From the NCBI RefSeq assembly GCF_003991155.1, contig NZ_CP031293.1: 64,000 nucleotides of DNA. The stretch is one strand, 5' to 3'. The number at the start of each line of letters is the position of its first letter. Position 1 is the first letter of the stretch. This stretch comes from Escherichia coli. GTDB taxonomy: Bacteria > Pseudomonadota > Gammaproteobacteria > Enterobacterales > Enterobacteriaceae. The position numbers and the translations under genes were made by a program. This document shows positions 1,110 through 60,711 of this stretch, piece by piece. Below the pieces are notes generated by a model. That model had not been told where the DNA came from. It was given only the letters and a program-made list of their open reading frames with translations, and did not search any database.

Positions 1110-3344
1110 ATGGTTGCGGTAAGAAGTGCACATATCAATAAGGCTGGTGAATTTGATCCGGAAAAATGGATCGCAAGTCTGGGTATTACCAGCCAGAAGT
1201 CGTGTGAGTGCTTAGCCGAAACCTGGGCGTATTGTCTGCAACAGACGCAGGGGCATCCGGATGCCAGTTTGTTATTGTGGCGTGGTGTTGAGATGGTGGA
1301 GATCCTCTCGACATTAAGTATGGACATTGACACGCTGCGGGCGGCGCTGCTGTTCCCTCTGGCTGATGCCAACGTAGTCAGCGAAGATGTGCTGCGTGAG
1401 AGCGTCGGTAAGTCGGTCGTTAACCTTATTCACGGCGTGCGTGATATGGCGGCGATCCGCCAGCTGAAAGCGACGCACACTGATTCTGTTTCCTCCGAAC
1501 AGGTCGATAACGTTCGCCGGATGTTATTGGCGATGGTCGATGATTTTCGCTGCGTGGTCATCAAACTGGCGGAGCGTATTGCTCACCTGCGCGAAGTAAA
1601 AGATGCGCCGGAAGATGAACGCGTACTGGCGGCAAAAGAGTGCACCAATATCTACGCGCCGTTGGCGAACCGTCTTGGGATTGGGCAACTGAAATGGGAG
1701 CTGGAAGATTACTGCTTCCGTTATCTGCACCCGACCGAATACAAACGCATCGCAAAACTGCTGCATGAACGCCGTCTCGACCGCGAACACTATATCGAAG
1801 AGTTTGTCGGCCATCTGCGCGCTGAGATGAAAGCTGAAGGCGTTAAAGCTGAAGTGTATGGTCGTCCGAAACACATCTACAGCATCTGGCGCAAAATGCA
1901 GAAAAAGAACCTCGCCTTCGATGAGCTGTTTGATGTGCGTGCGGTACGTATTGTCGCCGAGCGTTTACAGGATTGTTATGCCGCACTGGGGATAGTGCAC
2001 ACTCACTATCGCCACCTGCCGGATGAGTTCGACGATTACGTTGCTAACCCGAAACCAAACGGTTATCAGTCTATTCATACCGTGGTTCTGGGGCCGGGTG
2101 GAAAAACCGTTGAGATCCAAATCCGCACCAAACAGATGCATGAAGATGCAGAGCTGGGTGTTGCTGCGCACTGGAAATATAAAGAGGGCGCGGCTGCTGG
2201 CGGCGCACGTTCGGGACATGAAGACCGGATTGCCTGGCTGCGTAAACTGATTGCGTGGCAGGAAGAGATGGCTGATTCCGGCGAAATGCTCGACGAAGTA
2301 CGTAGCCAGGTCTTTGACGACCGGGTGTACGTCTTTACGCCGAAAGGTGATGTCGTTGATTTGCCTGCGGGATCAACACCGCTGGACTTCGCTTACCACA
2401 TCCACAGTGATGTCGGACACCGCTGCATCGGGGCAAAAATTGGCGGGCGCATTGTGCCGTTCACCTACCAGCTGCAGATGGGCGACCAGATTGAAATTAT
2501 CACCCAGAAACAGCCGAACCCCAGCCGTGACTGGTTAAACCCAAATCTCGGTTACGTCACAACCAGTCGTGGGCGCTCGAAAATTCACGCCTGGTTCCGT
2601 AAACAGGATCGTGACAAAAACATTCTGGCTGGACGGCAAATCCTTGATGACGAGCTGGAACATCTGGGGATCAGCCTGAAAGAAGCAGAAAAACACCTGC
2701 TGCCGCGTTACAACTTCAATGATGTCGACGAGTTGCTGGCGGCGATTGGTGGCGGGGATATCCGTCTCAATCAGATGGTGAACTTCCTGCAATCGCAATT
2801 TAATAAGCCGAGTGCCGAAGAGCAGGATGCCGCCGCGCTGAAACAGCTTCAGCAAAAAAGCTACACGCCGCAAAACCGCAGTAAAGATAACGGTCGTGTG
2901 GTGGTAGAAGGTGTCGGTAACCTGATGCACCACATCGCGCGCTGCTGCCAGCCGATTCCTGGAGATGAGATTGTCGGCTTCATTACCCAGGGACGCGGTA
3001 TTTCAGTACACCGCGCCGATTGCGAACAACTGGCGGAACTGCGCTCCCATGCGCCAGAACGCATTGTTGACGCGGTATGGGGCGAGAGCTACTCCGCCGG
3101 ATATTCGCTGGTGGTCCGCGTGGTGGCTAATGATCGTAGTGGGTTGTTACGTGATATCACGACCATTCTCGCCAACGAGAAGGTGAACGTACTTGGCGTT
3201 GCCAGCCGTAGCGACACCAAACAGCAACTGGCAACCATCGACATGACTATTGAGATTTATAACCTGCAGGTGTTGGGGCGCGTGCTGGGTAAACTCAACC
3301 AGGTGCCGGATGTTATCGATGCACGTCGGTTGCACGGGAGTTAG
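1110..3344 (+). CDS. relA: GTP pyrophosphokinase, (p)ppGpp synthetase I
   Basis: 744 aa ORF; HD-like and RelA/SpoT synthetase, TGS and ACT regions recognisable; RBS GGAGAGGA upstream. Confidence 0.96.
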   Translation: MVAVRSAHINKAGEFDPEKWIASLGITSQKSCECLAETWAYCLQQTQGHPDASLLLWRGVEMVEILSTLSMDIDTLRAALLFPLADANVVSEDVLRESVGKSVVNLIHGVRDMAAIRQLKATHTDSVSSEQVDNVRRMLLAMVDDFRCVVIKLAERIAHLREVKDAPEDERVLAAKECTNIYAPLANRLGIGQLKWELEDYCFRYLHPTEYKRIAKLLHERRLDREHYIEEFVGHLRAEMKAEGVKAEVYGRPKHIYSIWRKMQKKNLAFDELFDVRAVRIVAERLQDCYAALGIVHTHYRHLPDEFDDYVANPKPNGYQSIHTVVLGPGGKTVEIQIRTKQMHEDAELGVAAHWKYKEGAAAGGARSGHEDRIAWLRKLIAWQEEMADSGEMLDEVRSQVFDDRVYVFTPKGDVVDLPAGSTPLDFAYHIHSDVGHRCIGAKIGGRIVPFTYQLQMGDQIEIITQKQPNPSRDWLNPNLGYVTTSRGRSKIHAWFRKQDRDKNILAGRQILDDELEHLGISLKEAEKHLLPRYNFNDVDELLAAIGGGDIRLNQMVNFLQSQFNKPSAEEQDAAALKQLQQKSYTPQNRSKDNGRVVVEGVGNLMHHIARCCQPIPGDEIVGFITQGRGISVHRADCEQLAELRSHAPERIVDAVWGESYSAGYSLVVRVVANDRSGLLRDITTILANEKVNVLGVASRSDTKQQLATIDMTIEIYNLQVLGRVLGKLNQVPDVIDARRLHGS

Positions 3345-3360
3345 GCCGAAATTTGCTCGT

Positions 3361-3395
3361 ATCTACAATGTAGATTGATATATACTGTATCTACA
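3361..3395. promoter_or_regulatory. mazEF promoter/operator with overlapping (alternating) palindromes
   Basis: TCTACAATGTAGA palindrome at 3362-3374 and TGTAGAT/ATCTACA arms at 3369-3375 and 3389-3395 directly upstream of mazE. Confidence 0.6.
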
Positions 3396-3421
3396 TATGA
3401 TAGCGGTTTGAGGAAAGGGTT

Positions 3422-3670
3422 ATGATCCACAGTAGCGTAAAGCGTTGGGGAAATTCTCCTGCAGTGCGGATCCCAGCTACGTTAATGCAGGCGCTCAATC
3501 TGAATATTGATGATGAAGTGAAGATTGGCCTGGTGGATGGCAAATTAATTATTGAGCCAGTACGTAAAGAGCCCGTATTTACGCTTGCTGAACTGGTCAG
3601 CGACATCACGCCGGAAAACCTCCACGAGAATATCGACTGGGGGGAGCCGAAAGATAAGGAAGTCTGGTAA
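3422..3670 (+). CDS. mazE: antitoxin MazE
   Basis: 82 aa; AbrB/SpoVT-like fold sequence [23 protein letters not shown]; overlaps mazF start by 1 nt. Confidence 0.95.
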
Positions 3671-4005
3671 TGGTAAGCCGATACGTACCCGATATGGGCG
3701 ATCTGATTTGGGTTGATTTTGACCCGACAAAAGGTAGCGAGCAAGCCGGACATCGTCCGGCTGTTGTCCTCAGTCCGTTCATGTACAACAACAAAACAGG
3801 TATGTGTCTGTGTGTTCCTTGTACAACGCAATCAAAAGGATATCCGTTTGAAGTTGTTCTATCCGGTCAGGAACGTGATGGCGTAGCGTTAGCTGATCAG
3901 GTAAAAAGTATCGCCTGGCGGGCAAGAGGAGCAACGAAGAAAGGAACAGTTGCCCCAGAGGAATTACAACTCATTAAAGCCAAAATTAACGTGCTGATTG
4001 GGTAG
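3670..4005 (+). CDS. mazF: endoribonuclease toxin MazF
   Basis: 111 aa PemK/MazF family; start overlaps mazE stop (TAATG). Confidence 0.95.
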   Translation: MVSRYVPDMGDLIWVDFDPTKGSEQAGHRPAVVLSPFMYNNKTGMCLCVPCTTQSKGYPFEVVLSGQERDGVALADQVKSIAWRARGATKKGTVAPEELQLIKAKINVLIG

Positions 4006-4076
4006 GTGTTACTAACTCACTTCTATTCTGGTCACAGGTTTCCACCTGACGGACCCGCAATTTTCAGGACAATTCA

Positions 4077-4868
4077 ATGAATCAAATCGACCGTTTGCTC
4101 ACCATCATGCAGCGCCTGCGCGACCCGGAAAACGGCTGCCCGTGGGATAAAGAGCAGACATTTGCCACCATTGCGCCTTACACCCTTGAAGAAACCTACG
4201 AGGTGCTGGACGCCATCGCCCGTGAAGATTTTGACGATCTGCGCGGTGAACTGGGCGATCTGCTGTTCCAGGTGGTGTTTTACGCGCAAATGGCTCAGGA
4301 AGAAGGGCGCTTTGACTTTAATGATATTTGCGCCGCGATTAGCGATAAATTAGAGCGTCGCCATCCGCATGTTTTTGCTGACAGTTCTGCCGAAAACAGT
4401 AGTGAAGTGCTCGCCCGTTGGGAGCAAATCAAAACCGAAGAACGCGCGCAGAAAGCACAGCATTCGGCGCTGGATGATATTCCTCGTAGTTTACCGGCTT
4501 TAATGCGTGCGCAAAAAATCCAGAAACGTTGCGCCAACGTTGGCTTCGACTGGACGACGCTTGGTCCGGTAGTCGATAAAGTCTACGAAGAGATCGACGA
4601 GGTGATGTACGAGGCGCAGCAGGCTGTTGTCGACCAGGCTAAACTGGAGGAGGAAATGGGTGACCTGCTGTTTGCCACGGTCAATCTGGCTCGTCATTTA
4701 GGGACAAAAGCGGAAATCGCATTGCAAAAAGCGAACGAAAAATTCGAGCGTCGTTTTCGCGAAGTGGAGCGTATTGTTGCCGCGCGTGGACTGGAAATGA
4801 CAGGTGTTGACCTCGAAACAATGGAAGAAGTCTGGCAACAGGTAAAACGGCAGGAAATTGATCTCTAA
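4077..4868 (+). CDS. mazG: nucleoside triphosphate pyrophosphohydrolase MazG
   Basis: 263 aa, two MazG-type EExxE-containing repeats. Confidence 0.93.
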   Translation: MNQIDRLLTIMQRLRDPENGCPWDKEQTFATIAPYTLEETYEVLDAIAREDFDDLRGELGDLLFQVVFYAQMAQEEGRFDFNDICAAISDKLERRHPHVFADSSAENSSEVLARWEQIKTEERAQKAQHSALDDIPRSLPALMRAQKIQKRCANVGFDWTTLGPVVDKVYEEIDEVMYEAQQAVVDQAKLEEEMGDLLFATVNLARHLGTKAEIALQKANEKFERRFREVERIVAARGLEMTGVDLETMEEVWQQVKRQEIDL

Positions 4869-8177: not shown

Positions 8178-9050
8178 TTACCAGCGACCGGACGCGCCGC
8201 CACCGCCAGAAGAACCGCCCCCGCCGCTAAATCCGCCGCCACTTGAGCCGCCACCGGAACCGCTGTTGTCTGAATGATAACTTCTACCAGATGCTTTTTT
8301 CTGAAGTACACATAAACAGGTAAAGACCATAATGGTGGTGAAAGTAAAAAAGAAGAAAAATACAGCAATGGAAAAAGTTTTATCGGAGAACAGGAATAAA
8401 TCTAAAAGATAGATTGCTGAAATACAGACACTGCTTTTACATGCGCGACAAAAATTACTGCCTTGATGAAAAAACCAGAAAGGGAAGAACATCACTGCAA
8501 ATACCCAAAAAATAGCAAAGTAATAATGATCACTGGAAGACGCTGATTCAATTTCTGAAGGATTAGCCGGATATTGGTGTTGTGAAGTGAGTTGGTTATT
8601 CAAAGCGTTTATAGCTAGCTCTAATCCCTGAGCTAATTTTTGTTGTTTAAATGCGGGTATCATGTTGCTACGGATGATATCTCCAGCCAGAGCATCGGTT
8701 ACCTTTTCTTCCAGCCCATAACCTACCTGGATGCGGACAGTGCGGTCCGACCAGGCAACAATGATCAGTATCCCATCATTGCGTTTGGCATCTCCTAAAC
8801 GCCAATTGTTAAAAACCCTTGTAGCATATTGTTCAATAGAATCGTCTCCGGTGGATGGCACTATTAATACAGCGACCTGTGCCCGTGTTTTTTGTGTAAT
8901 ATCCTGCAGCTGTTGTGTTAGTGATTGTTGTTCAGACGTGCTTAAGGTACCAGTAATATCGGTCACCTGTTGGCGCAGCTCCGGCACTGCAATTTGCTGG
9001 GTAAGCCCAGGAAGGCACCATAAAGTAAGTAGAAAAAAGATTAAGCGCAT
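8178..9050 (-). CDS. TPM-domain (YgcG-like) membrane protein, paralog C; ATG start at 9050 chosen over GTG at 9059
   Basis: Signal peptide, TPM/DUF477-like domain ([29 protein letters not shown]...), hydrophobic segment, C-terminal [25 protein letters not shown]. Confidence 0.8.
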
Positions 9051-9055
9051 AATGA

Positions 9056-10204
9056 TCACCAGCGTCCGGATGAACCGCCGCCTCCTGAAGAACCGCCACC
9101 ACCGCGGAAAGAATTTCTCGACGAAGAGCGAGAATGAGCATTACGATTCCCCGTTTTCCTGTTGCTTTTTTCTCCTGACCCCAGTTTAAGATTGCCAGTA
9201 AATTTGGCCACAATGATCAGCAGAACGATGCCAGCAATGGTTATTGGGCCGATAAAATGATCAATTAACCCAATAATTGTTGAGATGAATGCAATATCTT
9301 TATTACTGGCGAACACCAGGCACCATCCCACAACAATTATCAGCATCACGACAAACAATGAATTTCGTCCTGATTCAGGAAATTGCTGGGTCTTCTTTTG
9401 TTTTTTCACTTTAGTGTTTTTATTTTTGGGGGCCAGCATCATAGGAAATGCGCGGCACATATTAAAAACTACCGCGAGACGCTGCCAGCAGGTTGTTGCT
9501 AACAATAAACTAAAACAAACGATCGACACCCGCCGAATGATGACATCATCCTGAAAGAAGAAAAACCAGACCATAGGGGTAATCATCGATATCATCCATA
9601 TGCCAGGCCCAGGACGGCTGGTAAATCGCCAGAGGACAACGATGGCAACGATCATCAGCAGTGTCCAGGCAAGACATGGCAGCGAACGTTGTGGATTAGC
9701 AAACAGATGATTGGCTAAAGCATCCAAAGGGCTAAGGTTCGCTTTGATATGGGTAAACTGTGCGATGCTTTCAATTCCGCCCGTTAATCCAGCAAAGAGA
9801 TTGCTTTTTTCGAATTCTGGCTGCATATGGTAACGAACAATTTGCGCAGCTTGTTCTGGCGGCAACATCTGTTCCAGTCCATGTCCAATCTTCATTGACG
9901 CCAGCCCTTCCGGCCATACGACGAGAATTAAGATACCTTCGCCATATCGCTTCTCTCCAACGGGTTTCCAGTGATATAACCCGTATCTCTGCGAGGCTGC
10001 AAGTTTAATGTTTTTGCCCCCTGTAGTCGGCGTAACCAACACGGCCACCTGGAAGTGGTTTTGCTGCTCGAGAGTCTGTAATTGTTGATTTAAAGCAGTT
10101 TGTTCTTCTGTCGTTAATGTCCCGGTTAAGTCAGTTACTGAAGGCAATTGTTCAGCGAATACCTGAAAACCGCATAGCATCAGAAGTAAGAGAAAAATAC
10201 GCAT
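9056..10204 (-). CDS. TPM-domain membrane protein, paralog B, with extended polytopic membrane region
   Basis: 382 aa; signal peptide, TPM domain ([23 protein letters not shown]...), about 200 aa hydrophobic region, C-terminal [15 protein letters not shown]; RBS AAGGAA. Confidence 0.8.
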
Positions 10205-10218
10205 ATCAATTCCTTTTG

Positions 10219-11112
10219 TTACCAGCGTCCGGAAGCGCCACCGCCACCAGATGAACCGCCACCACCGCGGAAATTGTCATTGTCGAATGAAGAGGATGAC
10301 GATGACGAATAGTGGGAGGAAGAATTACTTCTTGTATGGCGTGATGGCTGGTTGGTATTACGCATCGAATCCCGAACCTTTTTGCCGAAGGGAGTAAAAG
10401 CGATGGCGACAGCCAGGAACGGTGTGGCGAAGCAGAGTAATGTTGCGAGCACTCCCCAGCTTCCGCTGAAACCTGCTATAGGTAAAACAAAGGCCAGTAC
10501 AATAGCTGCGAAGCAAATCAGTCCCAGCGTTTTGATATATCCTCTGGCAGAAATAAACGTCAGTATTATCGCCCAGACTAACAAAGCCCACCAACCGCTA
10601 AAGGGCAAAGGGTGATCGGTCGGTGTTATCGTTGCTGAATTATTCCCCGTCAGGCGACTTTCAATATCGTTGATCCCCTTTTGTAAACCACCAGCCAGGT
10701 CGCCTTTTTTAAATGCCGGAATAATACTGTTGCGAATAATTTTCCCGGACTGTGCATCCGTAATAATACCTTCCAGTCCGTAACCGATTTCAATACGCAC
10801 GGTATGATCCTGCCAGGCGACTAACAGTAGAACGCCATCATCGCGGTCTTTATCACCCGGTTTCCAGCTATCGAATACCCGCGTTGCGTACTGCTCGATG
10901 GTTTCATCGCCTGTTGTATCAACCACTAACACGACCAACTGTGCGTGGTTTTTTTGCGTCAGGGCTTTAATCTGGTTGGTCAGGGTGTTTACTTCGCTGT
11001 TTGTTAATGTGCCGGTTAAGTCATTCACATACTTGGGGGATTCAGGTACTGGAATTTGTGTGGCAAACACAGATGAACAGAAGAAAGCCATAAGGAAGAT
11101 AAAATTTCGCAT
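10219..11112 (-). CDS. TPM-domain membrane protein, paralog A; start at internal ATG (MRNFIFLMAFF signal peptide)
   Basis: TPM domain ([29 protein letters not shown]...), TM segments, Ser-rich linker, C-terminal [15 protein letters not shown]; 13 bp downstream of lemA stop. Confidence 0.8.
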   Translation of the reverse strand: MRNFIFLMAFFCSSVFATQIPVPESPKYVNDLTGTLTNSEVNTLTNQIKALTQKNHAQLVVLVVDTTGDETIEQYATRVFDSWKPGDKDRDDGVLLLVAWQDHTVRIEIGYGLEGIITDAQSGKIIRNSIIPAFKKGDLAGGLQKGINDIESRLTGNNSATITPTDHPLPFSGWWALLVWAIILTFISARGYIKTLGLICFAAIVLAFVLPIAGFSGSWGVLATLLCFATPFLAVAIAFTPFGKKVRDSMRNTNQPSRHTRSNSSSHYSSSSSSSFDNDNFRGGGGSSGGGGASGRW

Positions 11113-11900: not shown

Positions 11901-12572
11901 ATGCAGTACCCGATTAACGAGATGTTCCAGACCCTGCAAGGTGAGGGTTACTTTACCGGCGTCCCCGCCATTTTTATTCGTTTACAGGGATGCCCGGTTG
12001 GCTGTGCCTGGTGCGACACCAAACACACCTGGGAAAAGCTTGAGGATCGGGAAGTTTCCCTTTTCAGCATTCTGGCGAAGACCAAAGAGAGTGATAAGTG
12101 GGGGGCTGCGAGCAGTGAAGATTTGCTGGCTGTCATTGGTCGCCAGGGATACACCGCGCGGCATGTGGTGATTACGGGTGGTGAGCCTTGCATTCATGAT
12201 TTGCTGCCACTGACTGACCTGCTCGAAAAGAACGGTTTTAGCTGCCAGATCGAAACCAGTGGTACTCATGAAGTACGCTGCACACCGAATACCTGGGTTA
12301 CCGTATCGCCAAAGCTGAATATGCGCGGCGGCTATGAAGTGTTGTCACAGGCACTGGAGCGAGCCAACGAAATCAAGCATCCAGTGGGACGCGTACGTGA
12401 TATCGAAGCACTGGATGAATTGCTTGCGACGCTGACCGATGATAAACCGCGAGTCATTGCACTTCAGCCAATTAGCCAGAAGGAAGATGCTACGCGTTTA
12501 TGTATCGATACCTGCATAGCGCGCAACTGGCGTTTGTCGATGCAGACACATAAATATTTGAATATTGCCTGA
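11901..12572 (+). CDS. queE: 7-carboxy-7-deazaguanine synthase (radical SAM)
   Basis: 223 aa; Cys motif CPVGCAWCDT; divergent from lemA operon. Confidence 0.93.
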   Translation: MQYPINEMFQTLQGEGYFTGVPAIFIRLQGCPVGCAWCDTKHTWEKLEDREVSLFSILAKTKESDKWGAASSEDLLAVIGRQGYTARHVVITGGEPCIHDLLPLTDLLEKNGFSCQIETSGTHEVRCTPNTWVTVSPKLNMRGGYEVLSQALERANEIKHPVGRVRDIEALDELLATLTDDKPRVIALQPISQKEDATRLCIDTCIARNWRLSMQTHKYLNIA

Positions 12573-12656: not shown

Positions 12657-13664
12657 TTATCGGTAGCGTTTTTGTAGACTGGCTGGAAGATAACGCTGTA
12701 ATGGGGATGGCGTTTCACCTTCAATCAGTTGCGAAATAAGCTCAAAGCAGTGAAAAGCAAGTTGGCGATTATCCTGTTGTATTGTGTCGATTCTTACCGA
12801 AAGTGAATCATACAAGTAATGATCATCAAAACTCGCCAGGTGGATTTTACTGTCGAGTAAATTATATTGGCTCATATAGCGCAGAACGCCTTCCAGTAAT
12901 CCACAAGCGGCAGTGAATAAGGCTTTAGGGGGACGTCCTAAACGAGCGCATAGCGCGGCAAACATTTCATAGCCTGAGCTCGGATGATAATTACCGTGAA
13001 TAATCCATTCAGGTTGTAGCGTTACTCCGGCTTGCTGCAAGCCTTGTGTAAATCCTTCCAGTCGATCGCGAGTCGGTGACAAACGGGGTTGTCCCCCCAG
13101 AAAATAGAATTCATCCGGGTGACTCCGTGCAATATCTGCCACCAGAGCGGTGGTGGGAGAAACAGAGTCAGTAATGACCAATGGCAATGTGCTGCCGTTC
13201 ATGTGGCGATCGAACAACACAACAGGTAATTGCTCGCTAAGTTTTTGATAGTCATTATCATGCAGCATACTGGATGCGACGATTAACCCATCAACCTGGC
13301 GGGCAATCATATTGTTCACCACCATTGTTTCCTGTGAAGGATTTTCATCAGTACAGGATATGAGGAGTTGGACGCCCGCTTCCCGACACAATGTTTCCAG
13401 TTCATGGGAAAATACTGCAAATCCGTAGTTAGTGATTTCAGGAACGACGAGACCAATGGTATGACTGCGGTTGTCCCGTAATGAGCGGGCATGAATGCTG
13501 GGCTGATAATGCTGCTGTTGGGCAATACTCAGCACACGCTCACGCGTTTCCTGCGCAACACGTAACTCTTTGCCACGACCATTGAGAACCAGACTGGCGG
13601 TTGCTTTCGACACTCCCGCCAGTTCAGCAATGTCTTTAATAGTAACGCGTTTGGTTTTTCTCAC
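12657..13664 (-). CDS. scrR: LacI-family sucrose operon repressor
   Basis: 335 aa; N-terminal HTH ([23 protein letters not shown]); position at end of scr operon. Confidence 0.88.
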
Positions 13665-13689
13665 GACGAGGATCCGTAATTCAAAACCC

Positions 13690-15099
13690 TCATTCTACCA
13701 TGCAGGCGCGTAGCGACCAGTAGCGTAACGTGACGTCAGACTCACCCTGTAATATCAGCGAAGCTGGATGATGGGGAAAATAACGATTACTCATTACACC
13801 TTCACCATTATTGATGAATATCTCTACGCTGGAACTGTCACAGAGAATCTTCAGTGACGTTACGCTTCCTCGCCAGTAACGAGTTAGTTTCTCTTGCCCT
13901 GCAAGGCTTCTCCTCTGTAGTTGAATACCATCGTCATTAAGATGCAGTGCCAGCGCATTGCCAAAATTCAGATACAGCTCACCCGACGGAATGATGTCCA
14001 TTTCCAGGCGTTCAATTTCGACATGCGGCGCATGATCTGCTTTTCCTTGCCAGAAGTGTTCAGCTTCACGCAGTTGCGCGAGTTCCCTGATTGGCATCTG
14101 AAACAATTTTCCCTTCTGGAATGAGAGTTCGCGAAAACAGGTCATTTGATGCTGCCAATGATGCTTTCTGGTTGGTTGCAACATCTCTTCGCCATCAGGA
14201 ACCCCCATCCAGCCGACCAGCAATCGTCGCCCGTCCGGGGCTTCCATCGTCTGTGGTGCATAGAATTCAAATCCCGCATCCAGCTCTGAGAAAGCGCCAT
14301 GCGTAAATTTGCCTGTCTCGTAATCAAACTGTCCATGTAGCCAGGCGCAGGGATAAGTATTCAGATAGCGCTCATGTTCGCGCACCATTCCCTGGGGGCA
14401 ACAGAGGAGAATGTATTCACCATCAAGGGCGAAAAAATCAGGACATTCCCACATGTATCCTGCGTTATCTATTTCATTCAGACCGTTACCAGCAATTTCT
14501 CCATGAAAAGACCAGGTATAGAGATCGACAGAGGAATACAGCAGCACTTTCCCCCGTTTCTCTTTATCTTGCGCGCCAAGCACCATGTACCATTGGCTGT
14601 TGTGCTTCCAGACTTTTGGATCACGAACATGTCCGGTGTAACCATCAGGTAACGGTATGACAGGGCCTAGTTTATCAAACCCGCCCTGGTTATTTTCGGT
14701 GGCCAGGCATTGCCATGCCGTTCTGCTGCCATCATCAAACTTAACATTACCGGTATAGCAAAGTGTGAGAACGCCCTGATTATTAACCGCGCTTCCTGAG
14801 TAACAACCATTACGGTCGTACTCTTTATCGGGCATTAGCGCTAATGGTTCATGCTGCCAGTGCAATAAATCCGTCGAACTCCAGTGCCCCCAACATTTGT
14901 ACTTATGATCACAAGCCAGTGGATTCCACTGATAAAACAGATGATAGCGGCCTCCAGACCAGCAAAAGCCATTTGGATCGTTCATTAGTCCAGTGACGGG
15001 AGCGAGATGCCAACAAGGATAGTGGGCATCTGCCAGTACTTTGGACTGACCTTTCATCACTGCCTGTAAAATCGCGGGCATTTGTGAAGGCATCGACAT
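13690..15099 (-). CDS. scrB: sucrose-6-phosphate hydrolase (GH32 invertase)
   Basis: 469 aa; GH32 motif MNDPNGF, WECPD; start overlaps scrA stop. Confidence 0.92.
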
Positions 15100-16469
15100 T
15101 ACTCCTCGTCCGTTTTGTATTTGAGTAATAAAGAGAGGCTAAAAGCGACAGCGAAAGCAATCACCATTCCAATAATATAATTAACCAACGATGTTGGCTG
15201 AACGATTGCCATGCCGGGTATTGCGGTCAGACCAACGGCAGTCATATAAACGTGAACAGAGACAACCCAGGCACCGCCGGCAGCGCCACCAATTAAGGCC
15301 GCAATAAAAGGTTTAACAAAACGAAGGTTGATACCAAAAATAGCGGCTTCAGTAATCCCTAACATTGCGGAAAAGGCCGAGGGTAGGGTGATTGCTTTAA
15401 TTTTTGTATCTTTGGTTTTAAACCATACCGCCAGACATGCACCGCCTTGCGCAACGTTTGCCATTGCCCAAATAGGCAGCAGGAAATTAACACCGATTGC
15501 AGGGTTACCTAAAAGTCCTGCTTCAATTGCGTGGAAGCTATGATGAATACCCGTAATAACAATCGCTGAATATAGTCCGCCGAATAACAACCCTGCTAAC
15601 CAGCCTGCGTGTGCAATCAGCGTGCTGAGAACGAAAGAGATACCGTCACCTAACGCTCGTCCTGCCGGACCAATAATCAAAAGAGCGATAAAGCCAGAAA
15701 TGACGACAGTCAGAAATGGCGTCAGAATGAGATCCAGAGCATCAGGGATAAACCTGCGTAACTGTTTTTCCACTATGCTCATAAACCATACTGCCAGAAG
15801 TACGGGGAAAACCGTTCCCTGATAGCCAATCATGGCGATTTCAAAACCGAAGAAGTTCATTGTCTGAAATCCCGCAGCAACGCCCCAGGCATTTGTGAGT
15901 GCCGGGTGAGTCAGAATCCCTCCTAATGTCGCGCCAAGATAAGGATTTCCACCAAATTCACGAGCAGCAGTAAAGCCAATAAGGATGGGGAGAATAATAA
16001 ATGCGGCTGAACTGCACATATCCAGCAGGATATAAATCGCATTATCGGCATTCACCCAGCCATATATTTTCACCATTCCCAGAAGCCCCATTAATAAACC
16101 AGAAGCAACAATGGCTGGAATGATGGGGACAAAAATATTAGAAAGTAGCCGTGCTATTCGCTGAAAAGGATTGAGTTTTTGAGCGGCGAGTCGAGCGGTA
16201 TCTGCTTTACTGGATTCGCTAATACCTGCAACCTGAATAAAGGCAGCATAGACTTTATTAACCACGCCGGTGCCAAAGATGATTTGCATTTGCCCTGAAT
16301 TACGAAAACAACCTTTCACTCCATCAATCTGGCCAATGGCATGTTGATCGGCAAGTGTGTCGTCAACCAGTACCAGCCGTAGGCGAGTGGCGCAATGTGC
16401 TGCACTGGTGATGTTCTCCTTACCACCTAATAAAGGAAGCAACGATTGGGCGATTTTATCGAAATCCAT
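15099..16469 (-). CDS. scrA: PTS sucrose-specific EIIBC component
   Basis: 456 aa; EIIB Cys motif (AAHCATRLRL) followed by EIIC membrane domain. Confidence 0.92.
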   Translation of the reverse strand: MDFDKIAQSLLPLLGGKENITSAAHCATRLRLVLVDDTLADQHAIGQIDGVKGCFRNSGQMQIIFGTGVVNKVYAAFIQVAGISESSKADTARLAAQKLNPFQRIARLLSNIFVPIIPAIVASGLLMGLLGMVKIYGWVNADNAIYILLDMCSSAAFIILPILIGFTAAREFGGNPYLGATLGGILTHPALTNAWGVAAGFQTMNFFGFEIAMIGYQGTVFPVLLAVWFMSIVEKQLRRFIPDALDLILTPFLTVVISGFIALLIIGPAGRALGDGISFVLSTLIAHAGWLAGLLFGGLYSAIVITGIHHSFHAIEAGLLGNPAIGVNFLLPIWAMANVAQGGACLAVWFKTKDTKIKAITLPSAFSAMLGITEAAIFGINLRFVKPFIAALIGGAAGGAWVVSVHVYMTAVGLTAIPGMAIVQPTSLVNYIIGMVIAFAVAFSLSLLLKYKTDEE

Positions 16470-16529
16470 ATAACCCTCTAATTCATTGTTATTTCAGTAA
16501 AAGCCTCACATCCGTGAGGCTGTCTGGTA

Positions 16530-18071
<1,542 letters not shown>

Positions 18072-18091
18072 TTATAAAAATTGCTAAAATG

Positions 18092-18105
18092 CTAAACCGG
18101 TTTAG
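18092..18105. promoter_or_regulatory. candidate ScrR operator (perfect palindrome CTAAACCGGTTTAG) upstream of scrY
   Basis: 14-bp perfect palindrome in scrK-scrY intergenic region. Confidence 0.6.
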
Positions 18106-18150
18106 GTGTTGATAATAAAGCTGACTTTTTAGCCAGAGCAATTATTTTCG

Positions 18151-18164
18151 CTAAACCGATTTAG
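18151..18164. promoter_or_regulatory. candidate second ScrR operator (CTAAACCGATTTAG)
   Basis: near-perfect copy of the palindrome 59 bp from the first. Confidence 0.55.
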
Positions 18165-18217
18165 TAAATGTGACAGGCACGACAAATCGGGTTACAGATA
18201 CAACAGCAGGATCACTA

Positions 18218-19135
18218 TTATGAAGGGAGATCGTGTTGTCGGGGTAAGGCGGTCATCGCGCCTTTAGCCGTGGTCGCCAGAGCACCACAAATCTGAGCTT
18301 GTGCAATGATTCGTTCAAGCTGTCTGGTATTTGTTGGTATTCCAGAATCAGCCAGACCTGCAAGTAATCCAGCGACAAAAGCATCTCCTGCCCCGGTCGT
18401 ATCGACGACAGAAACAGGTTTGGCGGGATAGTGGATAAACTGCCCCTGAAAATACACAAGTACGCCATTTTTTCCTTGTGTAATAAGCAATAAAGTCAAC
18501 GAATAACGTTGTACTAATGAATATGCGCCTTGCTGAACCTGGCTTTCGCCACTGATGAATAGCAACTCTTCTTCGGACAATTTAGCGATATTCGCCAGCG
18601 AAAGTGCGCGATCAAGGTATTTCCTTAATAGCGCTTCACTCTGCCAGAGATCGCTGCGGATATTGGGATCAAAACTGATGTTTCCGCCAGCCTGACGTAT
18701 TTTCTCCATAGCCAGAAATGCGGTACTTCGGGAAGGTTCTGCACTGAGCGCAATGGAACAAAGATGGAGCCATTCACCCGGCCCAAATGCAGGAAGGTCA
18801 CCAGGTTGTAAAAAAAGATCGGCACTTGGGCGTACCATAAAGGTAAAGTTTCTTTCTCCTTGCTCATCAAGTCCTACAGCCACAATTGAGGTGCGTTGTT
18901 GAGGATCAAGAGACATATAACGTGTATCAACATTTTCTGTACTCAGTGTCTGATACATAAAGCGACCGAAAGGATCATCGCCAACTTTGCCAATAAAGGC
19001 ACTTTTCCCCCCCAGCCTTGCGATACCGACTGCAACATTAGCAGGCGCCCCGCCAGGACACTGTAGTAGTCTCCCCTGGCTTTCGGGTAATAAATCAACA
19101 ACCGCATCACCGAGTACCCATACTCTTGCGCTCAT
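18218..19135 (-). CDS. scrK: fructokinase (PfkB family)
   Basis: 305 aa; PfkB/ribokinase motifs (DTTGAGDAF); first gene of scr cluster; RBS GGAG. Confidence 0.9.
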   Translation of the reverse strand: MSARVWVLGDAVVDLLPESQGRLLQCPGGAPANVAVGIARLGGKSAFIGKVGDDPFGRFMYQTLSTENVDTRYMSLDPQQRTSIVAVGLDEQGERNFTFMVRPSADLFLQPGDLPAFGPGEWLHLCSIALSAEPSRSTAFLAMEKIRQAGGNISFDPNIRSDLWQSEALLRKYLDRALSLANIAKLSEEELLFISGESQVQQGAYSLVQRYSLTLLLITQGKNGVLVYFQGQFIHYPAKPVSVVDTTGAGDAFVAGLLAGLADSGIPTNTRQLERIIAQAQICGALATTAKGAMTALPRQHDLPS

Positions 19136-22275: not shown

Positions 22276-22327
22276 TTAGCGCTTATGCCCTTATGCTAAA
22301 AATTATATCCAGTTACCAGAGATAATG

Positions 22328-22375
22328 AGAAAGGTAACTTCCCTCTCGCGGGGGAAGTTACCTTTCTTTTTTTTT
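22328..22375 (+). terminator. leader intrinsic terminator/attenuator about 24 nt upstream of ygcW start
   Basis: 16-bp perfect stem (GAAAGGTAACTTCCCC / GGGGAAGTTACCTTTC), 7-nt loop, followed by a 9-T run. Confidence 0.75.
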
Positions 22376-35093: not shown

Positions 35094-35112
35094 ATATTGC
35101 TGCTTAAATTAA

Positions 35113-35150
35113 ACGCCTCTGTCTGAAAAGATGGGGGCGTTTTTATTTTG
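35113..35150 (+). terminator. probable cysH terminator
   Basis: AACGCC...GGCGTT stem followed by TTTTTATTTT. Confidence 0.5.
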
Positions 35151-35357
35151 CGAGCAGGATTCCTGATTTTAAACGTGAACGCCGCAGGAAGAATCAACAG
35201 GCATAGAATGGCGTTGGGTGCTTGAGGCTGTCTGGCGTTAAGCATTCGCGAGGTTCCAGATGGACAAAAGCCCCAGGCGATATTTCTATCAACCTGAGGC
35301 CAGCGTTCGAACCTAAGCAATTCGGATGTTAGTCTCTTCTTTGCAGGGAGGCAAGAC

Positions 35358-35510
35358 ATGCTGACAAAATATGCCCTTGTGGCAATCATCGTACTGTGTT
35401 GTACAGTACTGGGATTCACGTTGATGGTAGGCGACTCGTTGTGTGAGTTGAGTATCAGAGAACGTGGTATGGAGTTTAAGGCAGTTCTCGCTTACGAATC
35501 GAAGAAGTAG
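35358..35510 (+). CDS. hokX: Hok/Gef-family type I toxin (small membrane peptide), 50 aa
   Basis: [50 protein letters not shown]: N-terminal TM helix, conserved LCE and AYES motifs of Hok; RBS GGGAGG; not in ORF track (below size cutoff); symbol by position next to cysH, from memory. Confidence 0.8.
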
Positions 35511-35515
35511 CCACC

Positions 35516-35580
35516 ACGCGGGGTAAAACCCCGCGTACTGAATTGTGATTGTTTGGCCTCCTGCACCCCTTTTTTATACT
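35516..35580 (+). promoter_or_regulatory. hok mRNA 3' fold-back element and terminator
   Basis: CGCGGGGTAAAACCCCGCG hairpin; GCCTCCTGC (35556-35564) near-complementary to the hok SD region GCAGGGAGGC (35343-35352); followed by T-run. Confidence 0.6.
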
Positions 35581-35635
35581 CTGTTTCTGGTGGCATTGAT
35601 TTCCTGCAGGCAAGGGAGTAATCATTTCAAACCCA

Positions 35636-36673
35636 TTAAGATGCCTTCGCCAGCTCCTTCACCAACGGTAGCATTATCCGCATAACATCACGGCAGCGAC
35701 GTTCTATTCTTCCTGGAAGTGCCTTATCAATATGCTGTTGATTATCCAGTCTTACGTCATGCCAGCTATTTCCTGCAGGGAATGCGGCTGTTTTTGCGCG
35801 TTGCTGATAACCATCCTTATTCCCAAGATTCCAGTTTGTCGCTTCCACCGAAAGTACAGCAATGCCCGCTTTGTCGAATATTTCTGCGTCATTACAACAC
35901 CCAGTGCCTTTCGGATAGTTTTTATTCAAACCTGGATTTGTGGTGGCGGCAATTCCATGACTGCGGGCAATTGCCAGCGCCCGGTCGCGCGTTAATTTCC
36001 TTACTGCTTCAGGTGTTTTTACGCCACTGTTGAAATACAGCTTATCGCCAACAATCAGATTATCGAGATTAATCACCAATAAAGTATTTTTCTTTTCGGT
36101 ATCACTCATGCGCTTGAGTAAATTCTCAGCGCCTAATTTCCCTTCTTCTTCACCACTGGTTGCCACAAAACGAATGCCATATTCGGTTGGCGTATTTTTC
36201 AGGCGTTCAGCCAGCTCCAGCATGACACCTAAACCTGCGGCGTTATCATCCATTCCTTGTAACGTCAGCCCGCCGAGATTGGCATCGGCGTCAGCATCGC
36301 TCAGCGGGGCGTAAGTATCCAGATGCGCCATAATGATGATCTGCTGCGGCGCTTTGCCTTCATGAGCGGCAATCACCGTACTTCCCGTCACGTTATGCCA
36401 GCTCTTGCGATTATCGCGGGCGGTATAAATATACCGACTATTAAATGTCCGAATATCACTGCGATAACCCATTTGCTGAAACTGTTGGCGAATATAATCG
36501 GCAGATAACATTTCTGCAGGAGTTCCGGTCATGCGTCCCGGAAAGAAAGTAGCAATATGTCGTGCCTGGGTATTAGCAAAATCGCCAGGTTTAGGTGACG
36601 AGGCGTGTACGGGGAGAATAAAGCATACGCCGAGCGCCAGGGCAGCGGTACGGTGGCGCAATGCGGAAAACAT
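35636..36673 (-). CDS. iap: alkaline phosphatase isozyme conversion aminopeptidase
   Basis: 345 aa; signal peptide, M28-family peptidase sequence. Confidence 0.9.
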   Translation of the reverse strand: MFSALRHRTAALALGVCFILPVHASSPKPGDFANTQARHIATFFPGRMTGTPAEMLSADYIRQQFQQMGYRSDIRTFNSRYIYTARDNRKSWHNVTGSTVIAAHEGKAPQQIIIMAHLDTYAPLSDADADANLGGLTLQGMDDNAAGLGVMLELAERLKNTPTEYGIRFVATSGEEEGKLGAENLLKRMSDTEKKNTLLVINLDNLIVGDKLYFNSGVKTPEAVRKLTRDRALAIARSHGIAATTNPGLNKNYPKGTGCCNDAEIFDKAGIAVLSVEATNWNLGNKDGYQQRAKTAAFPAGNSWHDVRLDNQQHIDKALPGRIERRCRDVMRIMLPLVKELAKAS

Positions 36674-39916: not shown

Positions 39917-40240
39917 ATGCGTAATAGCCATAACATTACACTAACAAATAACGACAGCCTTACTGAGGATGAAGAAACCACATGGTCACTGCCTGGTGCC
40001 GTGGTCGGTTTTATCTCCTGGTTATTTGCGCTGGCGATGCCGATGTTGATTTATGGCTCTAACACGCTGTTCTTCTTTATCTACACCTGGCCTTTCTTTC
40101 TGGCACTGATGCCTGTCGCGGTAGTGGTGGGGATTGCGCTGCATTCATTGATGGACGGAAAGCTACGCTACAGTATTGTTTTCACCCTGATGACAGTAGG
40201 CATTATGTTTGGCGCACTGTTTATGTGGCTACTGGGCTAA
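39917..40240 (+). CDS. ygbE: inner membrane protein (DUF3561)
   Basis: 107 aa, hydrophobic; position between cysC and ftsB. Confidence 0.8.
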   Translation: MRNSHNITLTNNDSLTEDEETTWSLPGAVVGFISWLFALAMPMLIYGSNTLFFFIYTWPFFLALMPVAVVVGIALHSLMDGKLRYSIVFTLMTVGIMFGALFMWLLG

Positions 40241-40433
40241 TTTGTACTTTCTTGTCTCCTCTGTTCATAATTCAAACCGTAACTAATAATGAGATTATGT
40301 TCTGCACGCCCTGGGTATACGTAACAATGGACAAATGTGGTACATTTGCCCGCGTTGTCGCGGTATCCCCAACAGAGGATGTAGAGTCGTCTTCGGATGC
40401 ATGGGATGATGATGCCGTTTTTCAGGGGGCAGG

Positions 40434-40745
40434 ATGGGTAAACTAACGCTGCTGTTGCTGGCTATTCTGGTCTGGCTACAGTATTCGCTGTGGTTCGGTA
40501 AGAACGGTATACATGACTATACCCGCGTCAATGATGATGTGGCGGCACAGCAAGCTACAAACGCGAAACTTAAAGCGCGAAACGATCAACTTTTTGCCGA
40601 AATTGACGATCTCAATGGCGGCCAGGAGGCGCTCGAAGAGCGTGCGCGTAATGAACTCAGCATGACCAGGCCGGGCGAAACTTTTTATCGTCTGGTGCCT
40701 GACGCGTCGAAGCGCGCACAGTCTGCGGGGCAAAACAATCGATAA
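40434..40745 (+). CDS. ftsB: cell division protein FtsB
   Basis: 103 aa; N-terminal TM segment and coiled coil. Confidence 0.93.
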
Positions 40746-40763
40746 ATCAGCCCAGGAATTAAC

Positions 40764-41474
40764 ATGGCAACCACTCATTTGGATGTTTGCGCCGTGGTTC
40801 CGGCGGCCGGATTTGGCCGTCGAATGCAAACGGAATGTCCTAAGCAATATCTCTCAATCGGTAATCAAACCATTCTTGAACACTCGGTGCATGCGCTGCT
40901 GGCGCATCCCCGGGTGACACGTGTCGTCATTGCCATAAGTCCTGGCGATAGCCGTTTTGCAAAACTTCCTCTGGCGAATCATCCGCAAATCACCGTTGTA
41001 GATGGCGGTGATGAGCGTGCCGATTCCGTGCTGGCAGGTTTGAAAGCCGCTGGCGACGCGCAGTGGGTATTGGTGCATGATGCCGCTCGTCCTTGTCTGC
41101 ATCAGGATGACCTCGCGCGATTGTTGGCGTTGAGCGAAACCAGCCGCACGGGAGGGATCCTCGCCGCACCAGTGCGCGATACGATGAAACGTGCCGAACC
41201 GGGCAAAAATGCCATTGCTCATACCGTTGATCGCAACGGCTTATGGCACGCGCTGACGCCGCAATTTTTCCCTCGTGAGCTGTTACATGACTGTCTGACG
41301 CGCGCTCTAAATGAAGGCGCGACTATTACTGACGAAGCCTCGGCGCTGGAATATTGCGGATTTCATCCGCAGTTGGTCGAAGGCCGCGCGGATAACATTA
41401 AAGTCACGCGCCCGGAGGATTTGGCGCTGGCCGAATTTTACCTCACCCGAACCATCCATCAGGAGAATACATAA
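40764..41474 (+). CDS. ispD: 2-C-methyl-D-erythritol 4-phosphate cytidylyltransferase
   Basis: 236 aa; [10 protein letters not shown] motif. Confidence 0.95.
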
Positions 41475-41953
41475 TGCGAATTGGACACGGTTTTGACGTA
41501 CACGCCTTTGGCGGTGAAGGCCCAATTATCATTGGTGGCGTGCGCATTCCTTACGAAAAAGGGCTGCTGGCGCATTCTGATGGCGACGTGGCGCTCCATG
41601 CGTTGACCGATGCATTGCTTGGCGCGGCGGCGCTGGGGGATATCGGCAAACTGTTCCCGGATACCGATCCGGCATTTAAAGGTGCCGACAGCCGCGAGCT
41701 GTTGCGCGAAGCCTGGCGTCGTATTCAGGCGAAAGGTTATGCCCTCGGCAACGTCGATGTCACTATCATCGCTCAGGCACCGAAGATGTTGCCGCACATT
41801 CCACAAATGCGCGTGTTTATTGCCGAAGATCTCGGCTGCCATATGGATGATGTTAACGTGAAAGCCACTACTACGGAAAAACTGGGATTTACCGGACGTG
41901 GGGAAGGGATTGCCTGTGAAGCGGTGGCGCTACTCATTAAGGCAACGAAATGA
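41474..41953 (+). CDS. ispF: 2-C-methyl-D-erythritol 2,4-cyclodiphosphate synthase
   Basis: 159 aa; [12 protein letters not shown] motif. Confidence 0.96.
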
Positions 41954-46815: not shown

Positions 46816-47223
46816 CTATTTGCTCATCATCTTGCGCACCAGCTGCATAAACAGCTCCTGCTCTTCTGCACTCAAACGCCCCAAAAATTCCTCATCCACA
46901 CTGTCACCAATCGGTATCGCCGCAGCAAGTACCTTTTCTCCTTCGGCAGTCAGCCAGACAAAGCGTCGCCGCTTATCAGCAGAGTCATGTTCTCGTCTGA
47001 CTAAGCCACGATTTTCCATTCGTGCCAACATTTCTGCCAGCGTTGCTTTGGTGCTGACGGCTGCTTCTATCAGTGCCACCTGTTCGATACCAGGTTTATC
47101 AGCAATGGCGCGCATCACCGCGTACTGTGGTTTGGTCAGATCAGGTAACTCGTGCTGCCAGCGAGCCGTGTGCTGCTGAAAAAGCTGTCGTAACTGATGG
47201 AACGCTTTATTTCGTAACGCCAT
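46816..47223 (-). CDS. MarR-family transcriptional regulator; start at internal ATG (MALRNK...)
   Basis: winged-helix MarR sequence; RBS GGAG 7 nt upstream of ATG at 47223; divergent from decarboxylase operon. Confidence 0.8.
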   Translation of the reverse strand: MALRNKAFHQLRQLFQQHTARWQHELPDLTKPQYAVMRAIADKPGIEQVALIEAAVSTKATLAEMLARMENRGLVRREHDSADKRRRFVWLTAEGEKVLAAAIPIGDSVDEEFLGRLSAEEQELFMQLVRKMMSK

Positions 47224-47246
47224 GTAAACTCCGGGCAAACTATCTG

Positions 47247-47261
47247 CCGCTATCATAGCGG
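47247..47261. promoter_or_regulatory. palindrome CCGCTA-tca-TAGCGG in the MarR/decarboxylase divergent promoter region (candidate operator)
   Basis: 6-bp inverted repeat arms directly upstream of the MarR-family gene. Confidence 0.4.
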
Positions 47262-47369
47262 TTTTTCAGTGACGCAGGGGATGTTGTTACTTTTCAGTGC
47301 TTGCCGCGATGAGAACAGAGGCGTATTTTAATAATAACGTTCGTGTACGAACAATTAAGAGAATTAACA

Positions 47370-47963
47370 ATGAGACTGATCGTCGGGATGACAGGGGCCA
47401 CCGGAGCGCCTCTTGGTGTGGCATTACTGCAAGCGCTGCGGGAGATGCCGAATGTCGAGACTCATCTGGTGATGTCGAAGTGGGCGAAAACCACCATTGA
47501 ACTGGAAACGCCTTACAACGCCCGCGATGTTGCTGCCCTCGCAGACTTCTGCCATAACCCGGCGGATCAGGCCGCAACCATCTCCTCAGGTTCCTTTCGT
47601 ACCGACGGCATGATCGTTATTCCGTGCAGTATGAAAACGCTCGCCGGTATCCGTGCCGGTTACGCCGATGGCCTGGTGGGGCGCGCGGCGGACGTCGTGC
47701 TCAAAGAAGGCCGCAAACTGGTGCTGGTGCCGCGTGAAATGCCGCTTAGCACAATCCATCTCGAAAATATGCTCGCACTTTCGCGCATGGGCGTGGCGAT
47801 GGTGCCGCCGATGCCTGCCTTTTATAACCATCCCGAAACGGTAGATGACATTGTCCACCACGTGGTAGCCCGCGTGCTGGATCAATTTGGCCTCGAACAT
47901 CCTCACGCCAGGCGCTGGCAAGGATTGCCGCAGGCCCGGAATTTTTCTCAGGAGAATGAATAA
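47370..47963 (+). CDS. ecdB: UbiX-family flavin prenyltransferase (decarboxylase B subunit)
   Basis: 197 aa from MRLIVGMTGATGA; UbiX/Pad1 family; symbol by analogy with the E. coli O157 locus, from memory. Confidence 0.85.
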   Translation: MRLIVGMTGATGAPLGVALLQALREMPNVETHLVMSKWAKTTIELETPYNARDVAALADFCHNPADQAATISSGSFRTDGMIVIPCSMKTLAGIRAGYADGLVGRAADVVLKEGRKLVLVPREMPLSTIHLENMLALSRMGVAMVPPMPAFYNHPETVDDIVHHVVARVLDQFGLEHPHARRWQGLPQARNFSQENE

Positions 47964-49390: not shown

Positions 49391-49400
49391 GGAGAACAAG

Positions 49401-49637
49401 ATGATTTGTCCACGTTGTGCCGATGAACAGATTGAAGTGATGGCGAAATCGCCGGTAAAAGATGTCTGGACGGTATATCAGTGCCAGCATTGCCTTTATA
49501 CCTGGCGCGATACCGAACCGCTGCGCCGCACCAGCCGCGAACATTATCCCGAAGCGTTCCGCATGACGCAGAAAGATATTGATGACGCGCCGATGGTGCC
49601 GAGCATCCCGCCGCTGCTGGCGGAAGGTAAGTGTTAA
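49401..49637 (+). CDS. ecdD: decarboxylase small subunit D (zinc-ribbon like)
   Basis: 78 aa; CPRC...CQHC Cys pairs; position after the UbiD-like gene. Confidence 0.75.
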   Translation: MICPRCADEQIEVMAKSPVKDVWTVYQCQHCLYTWRDTEPLRRTSREHYPEAFRMTQKDIDDAPMVPSIPPLLAEGKC

Positions 49638-60587: not shown

Positions 60588-60711
60588 GCTGAGGCTTTGC
60601 CCGTTTTGCAGGCGTTACGCCTGTTTGGGGATGGGCGTGTCGATGAGTGTCGAAAATGACATTTCATCGGCATGTTTTCGTCAAAAATGACAATCACCTG
60701 AGGAATGACTG

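Follow-up and report, generated by a model that had tools for sequence, protein, structure and literature searches.

Does the stretch of DNA that follows relA in this Escherichia coli chromosome hold a complete, self-regulated mazEF toxin-antitoxin module, and does it depart from the well-known module of E. coli K-12 in any way that could matter for its function? An earlier note on this sequence had described intact and translationally coupled mazE and mazF genes behind overlapping palindromes of the kind expected at the autoregulated mazEF promoter, and had counted them together with a hok gene as two toxin modules in the window, i.e., in the whole stretch of 64,000 nucleotides that was analyzed. 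Our comparison with annotated genomes, protein families, solved structures, and published binding studies leaves hardly any doubt that this is the mazEF (chpA) locus of the E. coli chromosome, a type II toxin-antitoxin module flanked as usual by relA and mazG. As such, it is already known and ordinary, and it holds nothing novel.

The window is E. coli chromosome and differs in a whole-window alignment by 1 mismatch in 64,000 bases from strain 2016C-3878, which is collinear with it and served as the annotated guide to its whole length. This sole mismatch lies at position 60599 between hycB and hycA. The ORF list, Pfam matches, and the annotation of the collinear strain agree on a gene order of rlmD-relA (1110-3344)-mazE-mazF-mazG-pyrG-eno, which places mazEF between relA and mazG as expected of an orthologue by position, and the annotation of identical strains concurs. 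The region from 3300 to 4080 (781 nt) has a 100% identical counterpart in many complete E. coli chromosomes, among them those of IAI39, CE10, and 2016C-3878, and the PGAP annotation underneath this match reads relA, mazE, mazF, and mazG. It is a minority allele that reaches at least 99% identity in only 46 of 4,671 matching genomes, and dozens of isolates obtained independently from humans, cattle, poultry, and wastewater carry it unchanged. The same 781 nt had no match among E. coli plasmids, in line with a chromosomal module. IAI39 had also been considered as a guide to the whole window and was dropped due to an IS4 element and a rearrangement directly after eno; this genome is identical across mazEF, and the IS4 transposase and rearrangement (positions 39997-41692 of its locus, L002, compared with window position ca. 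8170 onward) end its collinearity past ca. 8.2 kb.

The genes of the module and the signals around their start codons are the following:

3410-3419, plus strand: Shine-Dalgarno-like GAGGAAAGGG before mazE, the same in K-12
3422-3670, plus strand: mazE, ATG start, 82 amino acids, one terminal stop; antitoxin and autorepressor
3656-3662, plus strand: Shine-Dalgarno-like AAGGAAG, 7 nt before the mazF ATG
3668-3672, plus strand: TAATG, with one A common to the stop codon of mazE (TAA) and the start codon of mazF (ATG)
3670-4005, plus strand: mazF, ATG start, 111 amino acids, one terminal stop; predicted ACA-specific endoribonuclease toxin
4077-4868, plus strand: mazG, downstream gene of the relA-mazEFG operon (Pfam PF03819, 134.7 bits)

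This is the architecture of a type II toxin-antitoxin operon, with the antitoxin gene first and the toxin gene second on one strand, overlapping each other, and with an operator directly upstream. Purine-rich, Shine-Dalgarno-like motifs precede both start codons. The TAATG overlap can be read exactly as the earlier note had given it, and translational coupling of mazE and mazF, which that note had stated outright, may reasonably be inferred from this 1-nt overlap. The interval that it had assigned to the module, 3361-4005, is accurate as well because it runs from the first base of the first palindrome arm to the final base of the stop codon of mazF.

Both proteins are assigned far above the cut-offs of their families. 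MazE scored 191.8 bits with NCBIfam equivalog NF007312 (cut-off 113) and 50.8 bits with Pfam PF04014 MazE_antitoxin (cut-off 24.7), while MazF scored 227.4 bits with NCBIfam equivalog NF007386 (cut-off 120) over positions 1-111 of 111 and 84.8 bits with Pfam PF02452 PemK_toxin (cut-off 23.1). MazE, annotated as WP_000581940.1 in identical strains, shares 80 of 82 residues with PDB chains 1MVF_D and 1UB4_C, and MazF is identical to 3NFC_A in 111 of 111 residues. Structures of the same or nearly the same sequences have thus been solved for the complex (1UB4), for MazE (1MVF, 2MRN), and for MazF (3NFC and the 5CK9 series). From its identity to K-12 MazF, for which endoribonuclease activity and an inactive E24A mutant have been described (PMC5888573), the toxin encoded here should be an ACA-specific, ribosome-independent endoribonuclease. 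The module's own message would offer it 2 ACA sites within mazE and 9 within mazF, numbers that K-12 shares and that agree with PMC5888573. None of the PADLOC defense models matched MazE, MazF, or MazG, which leaves a defense role without database support.

The note had named a frameshift or truncation on careful alignment as the outcome that would overturn its claim of intact genes. Neither was found in an alignment with K-12 (MG1655 positions 2910500-2911700): there are no indels inside mazE or mazF relative to MG1655, and the reading frames of 82 and 111 amino acids each end in their single terminal stop. Over both genes we counted 15 substitutions relative to K-12, of which 13 are synonymous. 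All 7 nucleotide changes in mazF are silent and leave the protein without a single amino-acid difference, whereas 2 of the 8 changes in mazE are non-synonymous (D36G and N60S) and the other 6 are synonymous. In addition, one extra G follows the mazF stop codon here. MazE residues 1-35 are identical to K-12, and the C-terminal 46 residues are identical except for N60S. All of the 16 MazE residues that were perturbed by operator DNA in NMR (from K7 to I29, with W9, N11, and R16 as key contacts) are unchanged. Positions 36 and 60 do not appear in that list of perturbed residues, and position 60 lies in the disordered tail that binds MazF.

The spacer between relA and mazE (3345-3421, 77 nt) is identical to K-12 at every base; an alignment with the K-12 promoter had been suggested as a check, and it came out at 77 of 77 nt. 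The spacer is present in 4,418 complete E. coli genomes, and 2,834 of these have it in exactly this form. It contains the following elements:

3356-3405, no strand: predicted mazEF operator "cab", an exact match to the 50-nt "cab" oligo minus its last base (Zorzini et al. 2015, PMC4333400); it would overlap the autoregulated mazEF promoter
3359-3377, no strand: MazE site "c", GTATCTACAATGTAGATTG, an oligo in PMC4333400 that holds the palindrome ATCTACA-A-TGTAGAT at 3361-3375
3375-3388, no strand: MazE site "a", TTGATATATACTGT, an oligo in PMC4333400 with the perfect palindrome ATATAT at 3378-3383
3380-3398, no strand: MazE site "b", ATATACTGTATCTACATAT, an oligo in PMC4333400 that holds the third arm, ATCTACAT, at 3389-3396, with an inverted and a direct repeat in the repeat search

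The overlapping palindromes that had been noticed upstream of mazE are therefore real and resolve into three arms at 3361-3396, in a spacer that equals K-12 and matches the "cab" oligo. In our repeat search, ATCTACA (3361-3367) pairs with TGTAGAT (3369-3375) across a gap of 1 nt, and ATGTAGAT (3368-3375) pairs with ATCTACAT across a gap of 13 nt, i.e., the middle arm has a partner on each side and the ATATAT sits between the second and the third arm. Such a three-arm palindrome lies far outside what chance would give: when the 77-nt spacer was shuffled 20,000 times with its dinucleotides preserved, only 3 of the shuffles contained a 7-mer with an inverted partner on each side. When the same two-sided test was run across the window, 6 of 3,197 tiles passed and 3 of these overlap the mazEF operator. 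Elsewhere, two-sided inverted 7-mers were seen at 12352-12415, at 18092-18157 between the porin and kinase genes of a sucrose cluster, and at 22311-22362, where a T-run follows and the arrangement is terminator-like.

The mazEF promoter carries the name "alternating palindrome" in the literature (Marianovsky et al. 2001, as cited in PMC4333400, PMC8749433, and PMC5888573). Its operator has been described as 47 bp with three sites for MazE dimers, c, a, and b, represented by oligos that were used for calorimetry (Zorzini et al. 2015, PMC4333400), and it was with these very fragments that the binding of MazE to DNA was directly measured in that work. Three adjacent MazE sites, a middle arm that pairs both ways, and the central ATATAT are all present here in sequence, as expected of the autoregulatory mazEF operator of E. 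coli. A generic sigma-70 scan of 3100-4200 did not pick out the published promoters P2 and P3; its one match (3397-3426) was no better than shuffles. In the reviews PMC1626106 and PMC3021852, P2 is named without coordinates.

In K-12, the locus is also covered by an antisense RNA, aMEF, which the earlier note had left unmentioned along with the cassette nature of mazEF discussed below. Its counterparts in the window map as follows:

3311-3710, minus strand: predicted aMEF counterpart (ameF, b4844), with its start at 3710 inside mazF and its 3' end at 3311 inside relA, placed from the K-12 annotation
3711-3785, minus strand: putative non-canonical aMEF promoter, the 75 bp that precede the start, within the mazF coding sequence

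The 400 nt of K-12 aMEF map to the window without gaps and with 390 of 400 positions identical, and this span takes in the 5' end of mazF, the whole of mazE, the operator, and the 3' end of relA. The promoter is identical to K-12 from -36 to +1, and the substitutions further upstream at -37, -49, -61, and -67 are all synonymous in mazF. A 75-bp aMEF promoter fragment is active in K-12, where aMEF stimulates mazEF expression (PMC8749433).

The mechanism worked out experimentally in K-12 can be carried over to this locus, given the identity or near-identity of the sequences. MazE dimers would bind sites c, a, and b within 3356-3405 through their N-terminal AbrB-type domain. MazF sitting on the disordered C-terminal tail of MazE would then tighten operator binding near a 1:1 ratio and weaken it in excess, just as MazF has been found to raise the affinity of MazE for the operator near 1:1 and to lower it when in excess (PMC4333400), so that the operon would repress itself according to the ratio of toxin to antitoxin. 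MazE is expected to be labile (ClpAP, Lon), and once its synthesis stops, free MazF dimers would be left behind. These dimers would cut single-stranded RNA at ACA, the module's own mRNA included, and translation would be inhibited. The antisense RNA that starts inside mazF would probably raise mazEF expression as it does in K-12.

Beyond its genes and signals, mazEF behaves as a discrete and dispensable unit between relA and mazG:

3345-4045, plus strand: mazEF cassette, ca. 700 bp, delimited by alignment with the empty site of CFT073

The left edge of this cassette falls immediately after the relA stop codon, and the right edge lies between ca. 4021, where weak similarity resumes, and 4045, where perfect identity resumes, about 30 nt before the mazG start. 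Its GC content is 46.2%, compared to 53.6% in relA and 51.6% in mazG. The relA and mazG flanks were matched in all but one of 5,426 complete E. coli genomes, but most of the query was matched in only 4,415 of them, and ca. 1,010 of 5,425 complete genomes (ca. 19%), CFT073 among them, carry relA-mazG without mazEF. Neither flanking direct repeats of at least 5 nt nor mobility genes were found at the cassette. This polymorphism in the presence or absence of mazEF has been described before (PMC7167474).

Three other ways of reading these data have to be weighed against an intact and ordinary module, and two of them concern its parts. The exchanges D36G, in the folded N-terminal domain of MazE, and N60S, in its MazF-binding tail, might weaken repression or neutralization, and the locus would then be an altered or decaying, lineage-specific variant. 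That MazE differs from K-12 at two positions and MazF at none, that the allele is found in so few genomes, and that mazEF can be missing altogether would all fit such a scenario. We nevertheless consider it very improbable, since both reading frames are of full length and MazE scores as a full equivalog, since residues 36 and 60 are outside the DNA-perturbed set, and since an intact and fully conserved toxin could hardly persist without a working antitoxin. The unchanged recurrence of the allele in dozens of independent isolates argues in the same direction, and the share of synonymous changes (6 of 8 in mazE and 7 of 7 in mazF) suggests purifying selection. The palindromes, in turn, might act mainly as an RNA hairpin that ends or stabilizes the relA transcript rather than as an operator, given that they lie directly after the relA stop codon and that in read-through RNA an 8-bp stem can form between the arms at 3368-3375 and 3389-3396. 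However, the predicted fold of 3340-3425 has a z of -0.12, with 86 of 200 shuffles at least as stable, and on this value a hairpin or terminator was discarded as an explanation. No T-run follows the arms, a terminator scan of the plus strand from 3100 to 4200 returned nothing terminator-like, the palindrome of the c site with its 1-nt spacer makes a hairpin impossible, and it is to exactly these fragments as DNA that MazE binding has been measured. An RNA role is thus scarcely credible, and with a fold no better than shuffles and neither T-run nor terminator the palindromes are best read as protein-binding sites in DNA.

The third alternative accepts an intact mazEF module under its operator and concerns only what the module is there for. 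The cassette could owe its persistence mainly to being a selfish addiction element that was acquired horizontally and brings the host no benefit, rather than to a function as a stress-response or anti-phage system. Its clean boundaries around ca. 700 bp, a GC content of 46% next to 52-54% in the flanks, and intact relA-mazG junctions in the roughly one-fifth of complete genomes that lack it speak for this idea, and the review PMC7167474 argues likewise, pointing to multiple toxin-antitoxin deletions without fitness defect. On the other hand, ca. 81% of complete genomes have retained mazEF at one fixed locus, its operator is highly conserved, a mazEF deletion strain showed increased P1 infection (cited in PMC7167474), and the direct repeats and mobility genes that could betray a mobile element were not found at its borders. 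We therefore see a purely selfish role as a serious possibility, though not as the favored one. The physiological role of mazEF is in any case disputed in the literature between growth arrest, programmed death, phage exclusion, and a selfish element (PMC7167474), and the biological role of the module is not settled by this sequence.

A functional consequence of the allele itself would be a long shot. The MazE(G36,S60) variant of the lineage of IAI39, CE10, and 2016C-3878, together with the four substitutions upstream of the aMEF core promoter, may shift the set-point of autoregulation or the stability of MazE relative to K-12; our data give no pointer to this. If it were true, a natural MazE variant would be at hand that could be useful to dissect conditional cooperativity.

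The second toxin module that had been counted in the window is a hok/sok locus far downstream of mazEF, and the PGAP annotation of 2016C-3878 bears out the count of two in that it contains no toxin module besides these over the 64 kb. The features of this locus are:

35216-35373, plus strand: sok match, Rfam RF01794, 110 bits (cut-off 59)
35260-35316, minus strand: counterpart of K-12 SokX, antisense to the hok leader
35358-35510, plus strand: hok, an intact Hok/Gef reading frame of 50 amino acids, Pfam PF01848, 39.1 bits (cut-off 22)

A Hok/Gef reading frame with an antisense Sok RNA over its leader points to a type I module of the Hok/Sok kind. The Rfam match spans the hok leader in the orientation of hok, while K-12 SokX lies on the opposite strand within that interval, so the strand of the Rfam match should not be taken as the strand of the antisense RNA. 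The hok reading frame stays below the NCBIfam cut-offs of both the HokA equivalog (53 vs. 89) and the Hok subfamily (39.5 vs. 73), and it is a divergent member of the Hok family, neither HokA nor an orthologue of a named K-12 hok gene. Here, hok/sok sits directly between cysH and iap (35100-35640). At the same place K-12 has only SokX, followed by ca. 10 kb of type I-E CRISPR-Cas (cas3 to cas2 and the array) and then iap, and homology to K-12 from the cysH side ends at ca. 35360, the hok start codon. No CRISPR-Cas genes were found in the window, i.e., the type I-E locus that K-12 has beside hok is absent. This lineage thus carries mazEF and an intact hok/sok without the type I-E CRISPR-Cas that accompanies the remnant of hok in K-12.

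Other parts of the window hold genes that we list as observations in their own right. After eno, at 8178-11112, TPM-domain genes follow each other in a run together with a LemA-family gene, and the collinear strain's annotation gives the TPM-domain gene at 10441-11112 as a truncated pseudogene. The interval 12657-19135 from queE to ygcE is annotated in that strain as a sucrose-utilization cluster with a LacI-family regulator, a sucrose-6-phosphate hydrolase, a sucrose PTS IIBC component, a carbohydrate porin, and a sugar kinase. At 46816-49637, in the rpoS-mutS interval, the same annotation shows the hydroxyarylic acid decarboxylase subunits B, C, and D and a MarR-family regulator.

What the analysis of mazEF amounts to is a correct annotation of a toxin-antitoxin locus that ranks among the best studied, in a strain whose sequence RefSeq essentially already contains. 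Its use lies in placing the three MazE sites, the aMEF antisense RNA, and the edges of the cassette exactly on the window, and in the demonstration that the author of the earlier note was able to recognize a toxin-antitoxin module and its operator from raw sequence.

Among known systems, the closest is mazEF of K-12 itself (chpAI/chpAK, b2783/b2782), which shares with the module described here the locus, the gene lengths, the TAATG overlap, the MazF protein, the 77-nt spacer, the number of ACA sites, and the aMEF core promoter. Strains of phylogroup B2 without mazEF, such as CFT073 and UTI89, have the same flanks with intact relA and mazG, and in CFT073 the cassette is replaced by a 95-nt spacer (positions 846-940 of its locus, L005), in which GCTGGATA/TATCCAGC form an inverted repeat of 8 bp. 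More distantly, the module belongs together with pem of plasmids R100/R1 (parD, kis/kid) and with chpB of E. coli (chpBI/chpBK), which have in common a toxin of the PemK/MazF fold family and an antitoxin of the AbrB-type family. The relationship to Kid (1M1F) can be seen in a match to MazF with an E-value of 7.6e-9. ChpB and ChpS are distant paralogues: the ChpB model reached 55.2 bits (cut-off 129) and the ChpS model 33.9 bits (cut-off 101), and with both scores under their cut-offs the module is therefore not chpB.
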